Origin: Escherichia coli
GTDB taxonomy: Bacteria; Pseudomonadota; Gammaproteobacteria; Enterobacterales; Enterobacteriaceae
NCBI RefSeq assembly: GCF_003334405.1
Contig: NZ_QOWM01000003.1
Strand: one strand, 5' to 3'
DNA length: 64,000 nucleotides
Shown here: in pieces, positions 36,924-55,511 of the stretch
How the letters are laid out: every line of letters begins with the position of its first letter
How positions within the stretch are numbered: the first letter of the stretch is position 1
Translations under genes and position numbers: made by a program
Notes under the pieces: generated by a model
What the model saw: the letters and a program-made list of their open reading frames with translations, nothing else
What the model was told of the DNA's origin: nothing
Databases searched by the model: none

Positions 36924-38480
36924 ATGGAATTCTTAATGGACCCCTCAATTTGGGCGGGGCTACTCACGCTTGTTGTTCTCGAAATTGTGCTGGGTATCGA
37001 TAACCTGGTCTTCATCGCCATTCTTGCTGACAAACTGCCGCCAAAACAACGCGATAAAGCGCGTTTGCTGGGGTTATCACTGGCGCTGATTATGCGTCTG
37101 GGGCTGCTGTCGCTGATTTCATGGATGGTCACGCTGACCAAACCGCTATTTACCGTCATGGATTTCTCCTTCTCCGGACGCGACCTGATTATGTTGTTCG
37201 GGGGGATATTCTTGCTGTTCAAAGCAACAACCGAACTGCATGAACGGCTGGAAAACCGCGATCATGATTCCGGCCACGGTAAAGGCTACGCCAGTTTCTG
37301 GGTGGTCGTCACACAGATTGTCATCCTTGACGCCGTCTTCTCGTTGGATGCGGTAATTACTGCAGTAGGGATGGTTAACCATCTGCCGGTGATGATGGCG
37401 GCGGTAGTGATTGCGATGGCGGTTATGTTGCTGGCATCCAAACCGCTGACGCGATTCGTTAACCAGCACCCCACGGTGGTGGTGCTCTGTCTGAGCTTCC
37501 TGTTAATGATTGGTCTGAGTCTGGTGGCAGAAGGTTTCGGTTTCCACATTCCGAAAGGTTACCTGTATGCCGCGATTGGCTTCTCGATCATCATCGAAGT
37601 GTTTAACCAGATTGCGCGTCGCAACTTTATTCGCCACCAGTCGACTTTGCCGCTGCGAGCGCGTACTGCCGATGCCATCCTGCGTTTGATGGGCGGGAAA
37701 CGTCAGGCCAATGTTCAGCACGATGCCGATAACCCGATGCCGATGCCGATCCCGGAAGGTGCATTTGCCGAAGAAGAACGTTACATGATTAACGGCGTAC
37801 TGACGCTGGCGTCGCGTTCTCTGCGCGGGATCATGACGCCGCGCGGTGAAATAAGCTGGGTTGACGCTAATCTCGGGGTCGATGAAATCCGCGAGCAACT
37901 GCTCTCTTCACCGCACAGTCTGTTCCCGGTATGTCGCGGTGAACTGGATGAAATCATCGGTATTGTACGTGCTAAAGAACTGCTGGTGGCGCTGGAAGAG
38001 GGCGTTGATGTGGCGGCGATTGCTTCGGCGTCTCCGGCGATTATCGTCCCGGAAACCCTCGATCCGATCAACCTGTTGGGCGTGCTGCGTCGTGCTCGCG
38101 GGAGCTTTGTTATCGTGACCAACGAGTTTGGTGTGGTACAAGGTCTGGTCACGCCGCTGGATGTGCTGGAAGCCATTGCGGGTGAATTCCCGGACGCTGA
38201 CGAAACGCCGGAAATCATTACTGATGGTGACGGCTGGCTGGTAAAAGGCGGTACAGATTTGCATGCCTTGCAGCAGGCGCTTGATGTTGAGCACCTTGCC
38301 GATGACGATGATATCGCGACGGTCGCGGGCCTCGTGATCTCGGCAAATGGTCACATTCCCCGTGTGGGCGATGTGATTGATGTAGGGCCACTGCATATCA
38401 CCATCATTGAAGCCAATGATTATCGTGTTGATCTGGTTCGCATTGTTAAAGAGCAACCGGCGCACGATGAAGATGAGTAA
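36924..38480 (+). CDS. yoaE: TerC-family membrane protein with C-terminal CBS/CorC domains (YoaE)
   Basis: Track ORF 518 aa. Confidence 0.9.
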
Positions 38481-38483
38481 GCG

Positions 38484-40082
38484 TTAACGTAACGGCATAA
38501 TGGGCGTGATATGTCCATTATGCCGGGCGGGCGGCGGTTGGCTGCCCGCCAGCCATTTGGGAAAATCACGTAGCGGCATCGGCTGTGCGTACAAATACCC
38601 TTGCAAAATATGCACGCCATGACGGCGCAAATACTTCGCCTGTTCTTGCGTTTCCACGCCCTCCGCCACCAGTTCAATATTCAGTCTTTGCCCCAGCGCG
38701 ATGATGATATCGGTCACCGTCGAGTTAACCGCGTCAGAACCTATAGCTGCGGTAAATGACTTATCAATTTTCAGCACGTCAGGACGTAATGTTTCAAGCC
38801 AGGAAAACGAGCTGTTGCCGGTGCCGAAGTCATCAATCGCCAGTTTGACGTTTTTACGATGCAGCTCGCGGGCAATCCGATAATCAACATCCAGTAAGGC
38901 ATCGCGTTCGGTGATTTCGAGGATCAGTTGCTGAATCGGGTGAGCGCTAAACCAGTACTGATTGAGATCTTTTATCAGCACACCACGGCGAAAATGGCTG
39001 GGTGCGACGTTAATGCCAACATGAAACTGACTACTCATCGGGAAAACATGGCGCTGACGAATGGTTTCTGCCATCACATAGCGGGTCAGTGGCACAATTA
39101 AATGATGTTCTTCCGCGATAGGAATAAACACATCCGGTGAAATCCAGCCCTGACGCGGATTGTTCCAGCGCAGCAAAATCTCTACACCAATACATTGCTG
39201 GCTGCGCGCATTAAGCAAAGGCTGACAGAACAATTCGAACTCATGTTGCGCCAGGCCCAGATTGATTTCGCGGGAAAAGCTCATTCGGTAAGCGGTCGCC
39301 AGCCAGGCGATGTAGCCCACCAGTAAACTTAGCAGCACCGCCAGCGGTAATTGTGTTGGAAGATAGTGCCATGCCAGCGCCGTAGCCCCCGGACCATTAA
39401 CGTTAATGGTAAAAGGAAAGCGTTGCGAAGAAACCTGATAGTTTTCATTGTCTTCAGGTTGCGGAAGGGAATCTACCAGCCCATTACCATAGAGCAAATG
39501 CCGTTTGTCCACCGTCAGGCTGGCGCTACTGATTTGCGGCAGTTGTGGCTCAAGCAGCATTGCCGTCAGTAAGTCGATGTTAATCATCTCCATGACCCCA
39601 GCATTGCTACTGCCCGCTGCAGGCGTCCATTGAATCAAAACCGGACTGCCTTTAATCAGGGCACGGTCGATCGTCAGGCGTAAAAGTGGTTGCGGTGCAG
39701 GAAGTTCAGCCAGAATGTCCACGACGGGCACATTGCGATAACCAAAAATGCTGGAGCAATAAAGTGTGCCGTCTTGCACCAGGCCAATGGATCGCACAGT
39801 TTGGAGTTTTGCCGCCTGTTTACGTAATGGCAAATGGGCGACAGAGCAGGGCAGACCAATCAGCGGAAGCAAGACTTCGCTACCTGCCTGTAGGGGAAGC
39901 AGTACTTTATCTAATTCCTCTACAGCGTGATTGGCGAATTGTACTACCCGTTGTTGATTTAAGTTACGCTGTGAAATAAATCGCACGCTCAGGGTCGAAG
40001 CGAGCGTAACGAGTGCGCAAATCGTACAAACAATCATTCGATTACGACGATAGGTTTTAATGATCCGTTGTGCTTTTTGCAT
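38484..40082 (-). CDS. pdeD: c-di-GMP phosphodiesterase PdeD (YoaD), CSS-domain + EAL
   Basis: Track ORF 38484-40112 trimmed to MQKAQRIIKTYRR... (532 aa); EAL-type signature ...LILEITERDAL... seen. Confidence 0.88.
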   Translation of the reverse strand: MQKAQRIIKTYRRNRMIVCTICALVTLASTLSVRFISQRNLNQQRVVQFANHAVEELDKVLLPLQAGSEVLLPLIGLPCSVAHLPLRKQAAKLQTVRSIGLVQDGTLYCSSIFGYRNVPVVDILAELPAPQPLLRLTIDRALIKGSPVLIQWTPAAGSSNAGVMEMINIDLLTAMLLEPQLPQISSASLTVDKRHLLYGNGLVDSLPQPEDNENYQVSSQRFPFTINVNGPGATALAWHYLPTQLPLAVLLSLLVGYIAWLATAYRMSFSREINLGLAQHEFELFCQPLLNARSQQCIGVEILLRWNNPRQGWISPDVFIPIAEEHHLIVPLTRYVMAETIRQRHVFPMSSQFHVGINVAPSHFRRGVLIKDLNQYWFSAHPIQQLILEITERDALLDVDYRIARELHRKNVKLAIDDFGTGNSSFSWLETLRPDVLKIDKSFTAAIGSDAVNSTVTDIIIALGQRLNIELVAEGVETQEQAKYLRRHGVHILQGYLYAQPMPLRDFPKWLAGSQPPPARHNGHITPIMPLR

Positions 40083-40212
40083 GCGGGCCACCCTGTAAGC
40101 GTATGGCGACAAACGCCTGACGCAACAGTGGAAGTGTAGTGGGGAATATTACAGCAGACGAGAAAGCGGGTATAAATTCGCCCATCCGTTGCAGATGGGC
40201 GAGTAAGAAGTA

Positions 40213-41577
40213 TTAGTCACACTGGACTTTGATTGCCAGACCACCGCGTGAGGTTTCGCGGTATTTGGCGTTCATGTCCTTACCGGTTTCGTACATCGTT
40301 TCGATGACCTTATCCAGCGAGACGCGCGGTGCACTGGTGCGGCGCAGAGCCATCCGCGCGGCGTTAATCGCCTTCACAGAGGCAATGGCATTACGCTCAA
40401 TGCACGGCACCTGAACCTGCCCTGCAACCGGGTCGCAGGTTAAACCAAGGTTGTGTTCCATGCCAATTTCCGCCGCCACGCAAACCTGTTCCGGGCTACC
40501 GCCCAGCAGTTCTGCAAGACCCGCAGCAGCCATTGAACAGGCAACACCCACTTCGCCCTGGCAACCAACTTCCGCACCGGAAATAGAGGCGTTCATTTTA
40601 TACAATGCACCAATCGCGCCCGCTGCCATAAAGTAACGGGTATAGATGTCCGGGCTGACCGATTCAATAAAGTGGTCATAGTAAGCCAGCACTGCCGGAA
40701 CGATACCGCAGGCACCGTTGGTTGGCGCAGTTACCACACGACCACCGGCGGCGTTTTCTTCGTTAACTGCCAGCGCAAACATGTTTACCCAGTCAATGAC
40801 ATTCATCGGATCGTTAGACAGTTTATCGCTGGAAACCAGCATCCGGCGCAGGGCAGACGCACGACGTGGCACGCGCAGCGGGCCTGGCAGTACACCTTCG
40901 GTGTTCATCCCGCGATCGATACATGCCTGCATGGTTTGCCAGACATGCGCGAAATACTCGTCGATCTCTTTCTTGCTGTGCAGCGCCAGTTCGTTCTGCA
41001 TAGCGAGACCAGACAGCGAATAGCCGGTTTCATTACAGTACGCGAGCAGTTCGGTGGCAGATTTGAACGGATACGGCACGCTTACTTCGTTGGCAGCATC
41101 CTGACCAAAGTGTTCTTCATCGACGATAAAACCGCCGCCGATGGAATAATAAGTTTTGCTGTAGACGACTTCATCGCCGTTATAGGCGTGGATTTGCATA
41201 CCGTTTTCATGCAGCGGCAGGTTGCCGTTATGAAAACGCATCCCGTTGTCGCGCGGGAAATCCACTTCATGCCGTCCCTGTGCCAGCAGCAGACGTTCGC
41301 GCTCTTCTACGTCGCGAATAAAACCGGGAATACTGTCGATATCCACGGTGGCAGGTTCGTTACCTGCAAGACCCATAATAATGGCGATATCGGTGTGGTG
41401 GCCTTTACCCGTCAGCGACAGTGAACCATAAACGTCCACGGCAACGCGAGTAACGCTATCCAGTAAGCCTTTTTCGACCAGATCATCGACGAACTGTTTA
41501 CCTGCCTTCATAGGCCCTACGGTATGGGAAGATGAGGGACCAATCCCCACCTTAAACATGTCGAATAGACTAATCAC
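40213..41577 (-). CDS. sdaA: L-serine deaminase I
   Basis: Track ORF 454 aa, [33 protein letters not shown]... Confidence 0.96.
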
Positions 41578-48762: not shown

Positions 48763-50448
48763 TTGAAGAAGGTTTGGCTTAACCGTTATCCCGCGGACGT
48801 TCCGACGGAGATCAACCCTGACCGTTATCAATCTCTGGTAGATATGTTTGAGCAGTCGGTCGCGCGCTACGCCGATCAACCTGCGTTTGTGAATATGGGG
48901 GAGGTAATGACCTTCCGCAAGCTGGAAGAACGCAGTCGCGCGTTTGCCGCTTATTTGCAACAAGGGTTGGGGCTGAAGAAAGGCGATCGCGTTGCGTTGA
49001 TGATGCCTAATTTATTGCAATATCCGGTGGCGCTGTTTGGCATTTTGCGTGCCGGGATGATCGTCGTAAACGTTAACCCGTTGTATACCCCGCGTGAGCT
49101 TGAGCATCAGCTTAACGATAGCGGCGCATCGGCGATTGTTATCGTGTCTAACTTTGCTCACACACTGGAAAAAGTGGTTGATAAAACCGCCGTTCAGCAC
49201 GTAATTCTGACCCGTATGGGCGATCAGCTATCTACGGCAAAAGGCACGGTAGTCAATTTCGTTGTTAAATACATCAAGCGTTTGGTGCCGAAATACCATC
49301 TGCCAGATGCCATTTCATTTCGTAGCGCACTGCATAACGGCTACCGGATGCAGTACGTCAAACCCGAACTGGTGCCGGAAGATTTAGCTTTTCTGCAATA
49401 CACCGGCGGCACCACTGGTGTGGCGAAAGGCGCGATGCTGACTCACCGCAATATGCTGGCGAACCTGGAACAGGTTAACGCGACCTATGGTCCGCTGTTG
49501 CATCCGGGCAAAGAGCTGGTGGTGACGGCGCTGCCGCTGTATCACATTTTTGCCCTGACCATTAACTGCCTGCTGTTTATCGAACTGGGTGGGCAGAACC
49601 TGCTTATCACTAACCCGCGCGATATTCCAGGGTTGGTAAAAGAGTTAGCGAAATATCCGTTTACCGCTATCACGGGCGTTAACACCTTGTTCAATGCGTT
49701 GCTGAACAATAAAGAGTTCCAGCAGCTGGATTTCTCCAGTCTGCATCTTTCCGCAGGCGGTGGGATGCCAGTGCAGCAAGTGGTGGCAGAGCGTTGGGTG
49801 AAACTGACCGGACAGTATCTGCTGGAAGGCTATGGCCTTACCGAGTGTGCGCCGCTGGTCAGCGTTAACCCATATGATATTGATTATCATAGTGGTAGCA
49901 TCGGTTTGCCGGTGCCGTCGACGGAAGCCAAACTGGTGGATGATGATGATAATGAAGTACCACCAGGTCAACCGGGTGAGCTTTGTGTCAAAGGACCGCA
50001 GGTGATGCTGGGTTACTGGCAGCGTCCCGATGCTACCGATGAAATCATCAAAAATGGCTGGTTACACACCGGCGACATCGCGGTAATGGATGAAGAAGGA
50101 TTCCTGCGCATTGTCGATCGTAAAAAAGACATGATTCTGGTTTCCGGTTTTAACGTCTATCCCAACGAGATTGAAGATGTCGTCATGCAGCATCCTGGCG
50201 TACAGGAAGTCGCGGCTGTTGGCGTACCTTCCGGCTCCAGTGGTGAAGCGGTGAAAATCTTCGTAGTGAAAAAAGATCCATCGCTTACCGAAGAGTCACT
50301 GGTGACTTTTTGCCGCCGTCAGCTCACGGGATACAAAGTACCGAAGCTGGTGGAGTTTCGTGATGAGTTACCGAAATCTAACGTCGGAAAAATTTTGCGA
50401 CGAGAATTACGTGACGAAGCGCGCGGCAAAGTGGACAATAAAGCCTGA
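48763..50448 (+). CDS. fadD: Long-chain fatty acid--CoA ligase
   Basis: Track ORF 48697-50448 trimmed to the TTG start giving [24 protein letters not shown]... (561 aa). Confidence 0.93.
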
Positions 50449-50468
50449 GCGTTAAGTCAGTCGTCAGA

Positions 50469-50493
50469 CGCCGGTTAATCCGGCGTTTTTTTT
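50469..50493 (+). terminator. Rho-independent terminator after fadD
   Basis: Hairpin cgccggttaatccggcg followed by tttttttt. Confidence 0.7.
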
Positions 50494-53844: not shown

Positions 53845-53875
53845 AGGGATACCTTTATCGTTAGGATGATGGCGC

Positions 53876-55321
53876 TCAGTTGTCGCCTTTGAATACGGTT
53901 CCCGCAGGGAGCACTGGCGTTTTTTCCAGGGCTTCAACCGGTGTCTGCGGGAGATAATGTTCAACTTGATGAGCCGGAATGTCGGCGTAATCCTGTTTCA
54001 GCCAGCGAATAAACCCGCCGACTTTCACCAGTAAAATGACGAGGAAGGGAAGGGCTGTGAGCACGACGGTGGTTTTCATCGTTTCCAGCGAAGCACCGGT
54101 AAACAAGATGGAAAGCGGGATCAGAGTGATCACCACGCACCAGAAAAGACGCAGCCCACGGTCAGGATCGTCACCTTCCTGGAGATTACGCGTACTGGTC
54201 GCCGCCATGGTGTAGGCCACTGCATCCATATGCGAGGCAAGGAAAATAATCATCACGCCCAGGTATGCGGCGAGGAACAATTTACCGGCTGGCAACGACA
54301 TCAGAACTTGCTGTACAGCTGTTTCGCCGCCCAGTGTTTCCAGCACCTGTGGGACGTTGATTACGCCATTGATAAACTGATGAATGGCATAGCTTTCCAT
54401 TACGCCAAAGAAGAACCAGCAACCGACGGTGCTGCCGAGGATCAGTCCCCAGATAACTTCTTTAATCTTACGACCGCGGGAAACGCGGGTGACAAACATT
54501 GCTACGCCAGGGGTGTATGAGATCCACCACAGCCAGTAGAAAACGGTCCAGTTGCGGGTAAATGAACCATCGCCAAGCGGATCGGTGAATAAGCTCATTT
54601 GCAGGAAGTTTTGCGTGGTCAGGCCGATGGCATTGATGATGCTGTTGGTAATAAATTCGGTTGGGCCGACAATCAGCACCAGTAATGGCAGCAGGAACGC
54701 GCCCCAGCCAACCATTTTGCTCAGACGTTGCAAACCGTTGTTGATACCAATCCACGAGCTTAGGCAAAAAATGCCGCCGGAAAGCAGGATCACAAATGCC
54801 TGCACGGTGAAGTTATCGGGTAAACCGGTCAGCGCGGAAAGCCCACGGGTAAAGGTTGCTGCGGTAACAACAAGGGAAATGGTCAGTGCGCCGACAGTGG
54901 CGATCAGGAACATCAAATCGACCAGTTTTCCCCATGGGCCTTGCGGGCGAACGCCGGTAATAGCAGCAATAATGCCGGAAAGGCTCAGACCTTTGTTTTT
55001 CCGCACATGAAAGTGATAAGCCATGATTAATGAGGCCAGCGTATAAGTTGCCCAGGCGCTGATGCCCCAGTGGAAGAAAGAGTAGGGAACGCTAAATTCG
55101 AGTGCCTGTTGTGAACGCGGTGCGATATTTAATCCAGGTGTTTGATAATAATAGGCCCATTCAGCAACCCCCCAATAAAGCGTAGAAGAACCTAAACCGG
55201 CACAAATAAACATAAACAGCCAGGAGAGCGTGCTGTATTCCGGTTTTCCTTCGCCAAGACGAATATTGCCGTATTTACTGGTGGCTAAATAAATCACCAG
55301 TCCCATTGCCAGCAAAACCAA
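53876..55321 (-). CDS. yeaV: BCCT-family transporter YeaV
   Basis: Track ORF 481 aa, polytopic membrane protein. Confidence 0.9.
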
Positions 55322-55511
55322 TACCTGTACGGCGGAACCTAACGTACGCGTAACAAAATTTGCATGTTACATAAATTAAACAATTAAGAATACGGAAAGC
55401 CATAAAACACGAAACGGAAACAATAAAAGGTGAAATGACGCAGGTTATTTACTGCAAAGAACGAATAAAAAAACCGCGTCAGTGACGCGGTTCAAATAAA
55501 CTGGTTTGACC

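Follow-up and report, generated by a model that had tools for sequence, protein, structure and literature searches.

The two enzymes of c-di-GMP turnover encoded in the 64,000-nucleotide stretch of Escherichia coli DNA analysed here (the window), the phosphodiesterase PdeD and the cyclase DgcP, are with high confidence best explained as previously described housekeeping members of the c-di-GMP network that are independent of each other and act through the mechanisms proposed below. The direct basis for this consists of gene identity, architecture, topology signals and signature residues, while activity in vivo is taken from the literature. Both genes are known and named members of the 29-gene GGDEF/EAL set of E. 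coli K-12.

The window corresponds to a K-12-like E. coli chromosome. In an in-register comparison, 10 of its 64,000 bases differed from the MG1655 record NZ_CP032667.1, and none of these differences fell within the coding sequence of pdeD or dgcP (Table 1). Gene order (pyk-zwf-...-manXYZ-yoaE-pdeD-sdaA-...-dgcP-nimT-nimR) is in reverse orientation with respect to NC_000913. Megablast searches of 5,426 complete E. coli genomes with positions 38300-40300 and 38000-62000 as queries returned 100% identical matches in many strains for both (K-12 MG1655 among them for the first query), annotated as yoaE / pdeD / sdaA ... dgcP / yoaF. Both are core genes of E. coli, the pdeD region being present in 5425/5426 and the dgcP region in 5418/5426 of these genomes (both >99.8%). 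An IS1 insertion was recorded within dgcP in a few strains.

Base for base, the two open reading frames are those of RefSeq WP_001295494.1 (pdeD) and WP_001310896.1 ('diguanylate cyclase DgcP') from K-12 MG1655. Each is preceded by a purine-rich, Shine-Dalgarno-like stretch located about 15 nt or less upstream of the start; the longer frames obtained mechanically from TTG codons at 40112 and 60923 do not coincide with the annotated starts. The initial annotation had described PdeD as an EAL phosphodiesterase with a periplasmic sensor, which was borne out by Pfam, by the presence of two transmembrane (TM) segments and by the RefSeq identity of pdeD. Its description of DgcP as a cytoplasmic GAF-GGDEF cyclase was likewise upheld by Pfam, the absence of any hydrophobic segment and RefSeq identity. 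The domain search that it had suggested assigned a CSS-motif and an EAL domain to PdeD, and GAF_2/GAF and GGDEF domains to DgcP (Table 1).

Table 1. Coordinates of the pdeD and dgcP genes, of their encoded domains and of neighbouring features in the window
Feature	Position	Strand	Evidence and remarks
pdeD (yoaD) CDS	38484..40082	-	1599 nt, ATG to TAA, 532 aa, internal stops 0
PdeD TM1 (residues 17-35)	39978..40034	-	Kyte-Doolittle 19-residue window score 1.91
PdeD periplasmic CSS domain (residues 43-240)	39363..39956	-	Pfam PF12792, E 1.8e-42
PdeD TM2 (residues 245-263)	39294..39350	-	Kyte-Doolittle score 2.06
PdeD cytoplasmic EAL domain (residues 273-501)	38580..39266	-	Pfam PF00563, E 3.9e-58
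dgcP (yeaP) CDS	59769..60794	-	1026 nt, GTG to TGA, 341 aa
DgcP GAF domain (residues 17-155)	60330..60746	-	Pfam GAF_2 4.2e-10, GAF 1.3e-8
DgcP GGDEF domain (residues 175-330)	59805..60272	-	Pfam PF00990, E 5.7e-41
yoaK, 32-aa small membrane protein	59638..59736	-	RefSeq; starts 32 nt after dgcP stop
yoaJ, 24-aa small membrane protein	59561..59635	-	RefSeq; last gene of probable dgcP-yoaK-yoaJ unit
Terminator-like hairpin, 10 bp stem	59516..59541	.	Terminator scan, plus strand; between convergent yeaQ and yoaJ

The cyclase DgcP, its sensor and its downstream genes

DgcP displays no hydrophobic segment and is predicted to be soluble. It scored 126 bits with TIGR00254, the generic GGDEF domain model of NCBIfam (cut-off 37), which was the sole NCBIfam model passed; equivalog cut-offs of that collection were reached by neither DgcP nor PdeD. 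The active-site set is present (D212, K217, N220, H225, D229, R251, GGDEF at 253-257 and K325), is invariant with DgcZ and DgcJ, and was also aligned with the solved TpbB and 4urs, whereas the degenerate neighbour CdgI reads EGEVF where DgcP reads GGDEF. Orthologues with 62-75% identity were found in Salmonella, Citrobacter, Enterobacter, Leclercia, Lelliottia, Huaxiibacter and Kosakonia. The active site was kept in 12/13 orthologue representatives, the E. fergusonii orthologue displaying GDDEF. As judged from these alignments, the GGDEF active site of DgcP appears intact, and a homodimer would join two GTP-loaded GGDEF half-sites to produce c-di-GMP.

A published residue table gives DD/KNDHDRGGDEF for yeaP (PMC3484386), and the same paper lists YeaP with verified cyclase activity, Ryjenkov 2005 being among the references cited there. 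Deletion of yeaP in strain CFT073 lowers biofilm in glycerol medium, a phenotype rescued by the cyclase WspR (PMC3484386), and Shigella DgcP makes c-di-GMP as one of four active cyclases (preprint PMC13320778). Another study places DgcP under vegetative control and among the more abundant cyclases (PMC5635695); its level rises at 37 °C in CFT073 (PMC12890032). At the I-site position, five residues before GGDEF, DgcP displays QNGE (244-247) versus RESD in TpbB. Since the RxxD I-site is absent from DgcP, and arginine occurs at that position in none of the 13 orthologue representatives, canonical allosteric product inhibition would not be expected for this enzyme.

Two genes for small membrane proteins, yoaK and yoaJ, lie downstream of dgcP. 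The terminator scan revealed no terminator-like site between dgcP and yoaK, nor anywhere before the hairpin that separates yoaJ from the convergent yeaQ and likely ends the transcripts of both. RNA-seq has assigned yeaP-yoaK-yoaJ to one transcription unit (OperomeDB, PMC4620388), and yoaK is probably co-transcribed with dgcP. Among seven genera examined, yoaK was located downstream of dgcP in six and yoaJ in all seven: the order dgcP-yoaK-yoaJ, with a spacing of about 32-47 nt, was shared by Escherichia, Salmonella, Citrobacter, Enterobacter, Leclercia and Lelliottia, Kosakonia displaying just yoaJ. DgcP might work as a unit with YoaK and YoaJ, which would anchor it at the membrane or act as its regulators in that location, an arrangement that we regard as unlikely. 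If true, a cytoplasmic GAF-GGDEF enzyme would gain a membrane-proximal, local output. As synteny among these close relatives extends over the entire neighbourhood, the shared order is a weak hint of such coupling. YoaJ has been reported as an RseP substrate (PMC10470546), and no function linking DgcP, YoaK and YoaJ was proposed in the literature searched.

The N-terminal domain of DgcP belongs to the GAF superfamily, as judged from its profile match and predicted fold. Residues 1-172 were modelled with AlphaFold, with 30 orthologues as input (pLDDT 87.6); in the model, the GAF fold is succeeded by an uninterrupted helix of 35 residues (137-171). Foldseek searches with this model matched many GAF structures with probability 1.0 (TM-score 0.65-0.78, 9-18% identity). 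These matches, among them the GAF domain of the phytochrome-linked cyclase 5llw, were generic and dominated by phytochromes, so that no ligand of DgcP can be deduced from them. Connected to the GGDEF domain via the long helix 137-171, the GAF domain may control the cyclase through it.

Every one of the 30 orthologue GAF domains carries C77 and C126, and almost all carry C98, a conservation that would suit a thiol redox or methionine-sulfoxide sensor related to MsrC, the GAF-type free Met-R-sulfoxide reductase. In Kosakonia, the distantly related GAF domain of a neighbouring gene (22% identity) has cysteines aligned with the two invariant ones, the best Pfam match of the DgcP domain is GAF_2, and msrC is itself encoded in the window. 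Such a sensor is nevertheless quite improbable: BLASTP comparison with the product of the window's own msrC gave no similarity (E 2.1), by which an MsrC-like origin was rejected at the sequence level, a sequence search against PDB chains returned nothing significant (best E 0.075, an unrelated channel domain and not a GAF) and the fold matches are generic. For specialists, the question is sharpened to the signal sensed by the GAF domain of DgcP, in view of the invariance of Cys77 and Cys126 and the lack of an I-site.

The phosphodiesterase PdeD and its possible periplasmic switch

The N-terminus of PdeD (MQKAQRIIKTYRRNRM) is rich in K/R, and hydropathy analysis revealed exactly two membrane-spanning segments, TM1 and TM2. 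From these, the loop between the segments is predicted to be periplasmic and the EAL domain cytoplasmic; positive-inside topology would also place the N-terminus in the cytoplasm. Hallmarks of the CSS class were found in this loop, namely domain PF12792 between two TM segments and two periplasmic cysteines, the second of which lies within a C-S-S motif. Indeed, PdeD has six cysteines and its periplasmic loop holds just Cys79 (LPCSVAH) and Cys109 (LYCSS). Their contexts align with those of PdeC Cys75 (QVCTPAH) and Cys106 (FLCSS), the pair shown by experiment to form a regulatory disulfide (PMC5897775).

When the EAL domains of PdeD, PdeC and PdeL were aligned, residues Q287, E301, L303, R305, N358, E389, T391, E392, D417, D418, K438, D440, E474, E477 and Q494 of PdeD proved invariant. 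All elements by which active EAL domains are recognised (ExLxR, N, ExxE, DD, K, E and Q) were thus present, and the published residue table gives EILR/QRDD/TE/ENEEDKEQ for yoaD, all of it consensus (PMC3484386). The domain could be aligned over its full length with the chains of PA3825 EAL crystal structures (E 7e-56) and with PdeL/YahA (E 2e-47). According to the initial annotation, both signature motifs were visible in the translations. This holds for GGDEF, which is literal in DgcP, but not for PdeD, whose tripeptide is E301-I-L; the sole literal EAL in the two proteins is a chance tripeptide at residues 157-159 of DgcP. EVL occurs at the signature in the solved EAL domains of PdeL (YahA) and PA3825, and EIL in PdeD appears to be a tolerated variant. 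Loop 6 reads DFGTGNSS instead of the usual DFGTGYSS, PA3825 having H at the variable position. On the whole, PdeD looks catalytically intact; the literature searched contained no purified-enzyme assay of it.

In PdeC and PdeB, a DsbA/DsbB-dependent disulfide lowers activity, whereas the thiol form is active, dimerises via TM2 and is processed by DegP/DegQ (PMC5897775). This redox and proteolytic control was demonstrated for PdeC and PdeB only; the authors expected the same switch for PdeD without showing it, and considered variations possible, such as an active oxidised form (PMC5897775). From PdeC and PdeB we infer a similar gating of PdeD. The protein would be an inner-membrane phosphodiesterase whose EAL domain hydrolyses c-di-GMP to pGpG with Mg2+/Mn2+, and its activity would be kept low by a Cys79-Cys109 disulfide made by DsbA/DsbB. 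Once reduced, it would dimerise through TM2 and turn active, and DegP/DegQ would cut it back to a TM2+EAL fragment that retains activity. Whether PdeD follows the periplasmic disulfide and DegP/DegQ switch of PdeC is the second question sharpened here for specialists.

Evidence bearing on PdeD in vivo comes from the literature. According to a review, yoaD is induced by CsgD and YoaD lowers cellulose-dependent aggregation (Brombacher 2006 reviewed in PMC4646962), and another paper reports RpoS-dependent induction of PdeD in stationary phase (PMC5635695). A scan for consensus sigma-70 promoters upstream of pdeD found none, which is consistent with the reported RpoS dependence but uninformative. 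In Shigella, deletion of pdeD raises c-di-GMP (preprint PMC13320778). In CFT073, deletion of yoaD lowers biofilm, opposite to what would simply be expected of a phosphodiesterase (PDE); the deletion phenotype is rescued by the heterologous PDE VC1086 (PMC3484386).

Some of the above traits could be read as signs that PdeD, DgcP or both are degenerate c-di-GMP receptors or protein-protein regulators, like CdgI, BluF, YdiV and CsrD: EIL and the altered loop 6 in PdeD, to which PGAP gives merely the label 'EAL domain-containing protein', as well as the missing RxxD of DgcP and the GDDEF of its E. fergusonii orthologue. This is highly improbable. The published catalytic, metal and substrate residue sets are complete in both proteins, a variant tripeptide (EVL) and a loop 6 with a residue other than Tyr are encountered in the solved PdeL/PA3825 PDE domains, and genetic data point to activity (PMC3484386, PMC13320778). 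Degenerate catalytic motifs, named in the initial annotation as the finding that would speak against it, did not appear: upon alignment with solved or characterised enzymes, both motif sets proved intact.

Co-occurrence of pdeD and dgcP

As the initial annotation had pointed out, two enzymes of c-di-GMP turnover share the window. No third was detected, since a phmmer search of 806 six-frame ORF segments revealed no further EAL, GGDEF, CSS or DgcP-like GAF domain. Likewise, no c-di-GMP riboswitch was found in the window by comparison with Rfam, where matches were confined to SraC/SdsR, the cspA thermoregulator and sroD. The two genes are 19.7 kb apart and, since some 21 annotated, unrelated genes occupy both strands of the interval, belong to separate transcription units.

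Chance was modelled by placing 29 GGDEF/EAL genes at random in 4.64 Mb. The expectation is about 0.4 such genes in 64 kb, a random window contains two or more with a probability of 0.06, and at least one pair no more than 22.3 kb apart arose in 98.5% of the random placements. The co-occurrence of pdeD and dgcP is therefore no more than chance predicts. Two additional genes, dgcJ and cdgI (dgcI), start about 1 kb past the end of the window, which brings 4 of the 29 GGDEF/EAL genes into some 30 kb (simulated P = 0.02); this value becomes 0.29 when the tandem dgcJ/dgcI is counted as one event.

That PdeD and DgcP would form a functionally coupled cyclase/phosphodiesterase module, hence their shared neighbourhood, is extremely improbable: although both genes lie within one 64-kb window, and belong to the four-gene cluster just described, and although dgcP of other genera has an EAL gene close by (it is followed directly by a GAF-EAL gene in Kosakonia and, 1.1 kb downstream, by a CSS-EAL gene in Enterobacter), their distance, the intervening genes and the chance model all argue against it, as do their dissimilar regulation (RpoS-dependent for PdeD versus vegetative for DgcP, according to PMC5635695), the main-text passages of that same interactome paper on the two proteins, which give expression and no interaction, and the nature of the Enterobacter neighbour. 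The latter was rejected as a pdeD orthologue, its similarity to PdeD (25% identity) being restricted to the surroundings of the Cys pair. No evidence for a PdeD-DgcP functional pair was found in this analysis. Genome annotation is little affected by these results, and the joint presence of pdeD and dgcP in the window adds no new information.

Comparison with known systems

PdeC (YjcC) and PdeB (YlaB) are the characterised CSS-domain phosphodiesterases of E. coli K-12 closest to PdeD in organization, with the same succession of TM1, periplasmic CSS domain, TM2 and EAL domain. PdeD was listed together with them among the five CSS-domain members of K-12, PdeB/C/D/G/N (Herbst et al. 2018, PMC5897775). 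PdeD and PdeC carry their Cys pairs (C79/C109 and C75/C106, respectively) in the same contexts and share, in the EAL domain, 35% identity and every catalytic residue, PdeC displaying EAL and PdeD EIL. Their CSS domains, in contrast, are too diverged for BLASTP alignment and are linked solely by their match to the Pfam profile and by the surroundings of the cysteines. With PRK10551, the sole CSS-EAL equivalog model of NCBIfam, PdeD scored 319 bits (cut-off 461).

Among solved structures, the best matches to PdeD were the EAL domains of PA3825 (4y9o, 4y8e, 5mf5) and PdeL/YahA (4lj3, 4kie), which align with it at the ExLxR, N, ExTE, DDFGTG, KID, EGVE and QG motifs. They differ by being soluble or otherwise regulated, by the absence of a CSS sensor and by their EVL signature.

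For DgcP, the GGDEF domains of TpbB/YfiN (7a7e), a Thermotoga cyclase (4urs), PleD (1w25) and DgcZ (3tvk, 4h54) matched with E values from 2e-23 to 3e-13 and have the active-site residues in common with it. The sensors are different, GAF in DgcP as opposed to REC, CZB or periplasmic PAS/HAMP domains in these enzymes. A GAF-containing sensor joined to GGDEF by a long helical linker is encountered in the bacteriophytochrome-linked cyclase of Idiomarina (5llw, 6et7), whose GAF domain superimposes on the DgcP model with a TM-score of about 0.75 (about 14% identity) and whose GGDEF domain matches that of DgcP with E 5e-18. Unlike this protein, DgcP has neither PAS nor PHY domains and no sign of bilin binding, and the likeness between the two is confined to the mode of coupling.

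Variation and loss of dgcP and its small 3' neighbours

Gene dgcP, coding for a GAF-GGDEF diguanylate cyclase, was followed on its 3' side by yoaK and yoaJ (see table), coding for small membrane proteins of 32 and 24 aa, respectively, and no terminator-like site was found between the three genes. Across the compared loci L009-L014, dgcP was followed by both yoaK and yoaJ in Salmonella, Citrobacter, Enterobacter, Leclercia and Lelliottia, while Kosakonia retained yoaJ alone, without yoaK, at its dgcP locus. For Citrobacter and Enterobacter both small genes, and for Lelliottia and Kosakonia yoaJ, were absent from the gene calls and were detected via translation.

The dgcP gene itself displayed two kinds of variation. 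In alignment A3, the E. fergusonii orthologue (representative P0019, 78 member sequences) displayed GDDEF in place of the active-site GGDEF motif, and on this substitution the protein may be catalytically impaired. Furthermore, IS1 was found inside dgcP in several E. coli strains (e.g. LR-45, locus L005; database matches H13-H20), where the gene is broken into pseudogene fragments 909 nt and 126 nt long. Such interrupted copies represent natural gene loss in some lineages.

Other GGDEF and EAL genes, and the convergence of yoaE and pdeD

The tandem dgcJ/cdgI (dgcI) starts ~1 kb beyond the window end, which brings to four the number of GGDEF/EAL genes within ~30 kb, out of 29 in E. coli. With this tandem pair taken as a single event, the excess was not significant (P = 0.29). 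The 610-aa protein of Kosakonia sacchari displayed a GAF domain 22% identical to that of DgcP, both invariant Cys positions of DgcP being common to the two. The CSS-EAL neighbour in Enterobacter was considered as a pdeD orthologue and rejected.

Within the window, pdeD (minus strand, stop codon from 38484) is convergent with yoaE (plus strand, ending at 38480), only 3 bp separating the two stop codons. This gap leaves no room for an intergenic terminator; hence the two transcripts must either overlap or end within the opposite gene.

Coordinates of features in the window and in compared loci
Feature	Location	Description
yoaJ + yoaK	window 59561-59736	small membrane-protein genes directly after dgcP
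dgcJ + cdgI (dgcI)	K-12 locus L004 26465-29611 (about window 64978-68124)	tandem GGDEF genes
GAF-(GGDEF-like)-EAL gene, 610 aa	L010 3800-5632	Kosakonia sacchari, directly downstream of dgcP orthologue
CSS-EAL gene	L013 3643-4029	Enterobacter pasteurii, 1.1 kb downstream of dgcP orthologue
yeaV (BCCT family transporter)	window 53875-55356	PGAP pseudogene, 'incomplete; missing N-terminus'
SraC/RyeA + SdsR/RyeB	window 15265-15409	overlapping antisense sRNA pair (Rfam)
cspA-type thermoregulator 5'UTR	window 30898-31358	across yobF and cspC gene (Rfam)
sroD	window 50407-50492	Rfam
Single-base differences	window 8228, 13089, 34759, 43480, 43670, 44897, 46583, 48251, 57043, 62207	versus NZ_CP032667.1

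Relation to K-12

Ten single-base differences separated the window from MG1655 record NZ_CP032667.1, indicating a very close K-12 relative or variant record rather than that exact sequence. Across 38000-62000, FORC_081, H3 and NCTC9100 displayed 100% identity to the window. The yeaV pseudogene flag was present in both K-12 MG1655 and strain FORC_081, and the cspC gene beside yobF is labelled cspE by RefSeq. Finally, SraC/RyeA, SdsR/RyeB, the cspA-type thermoregulator and sroD are already known from K-12.
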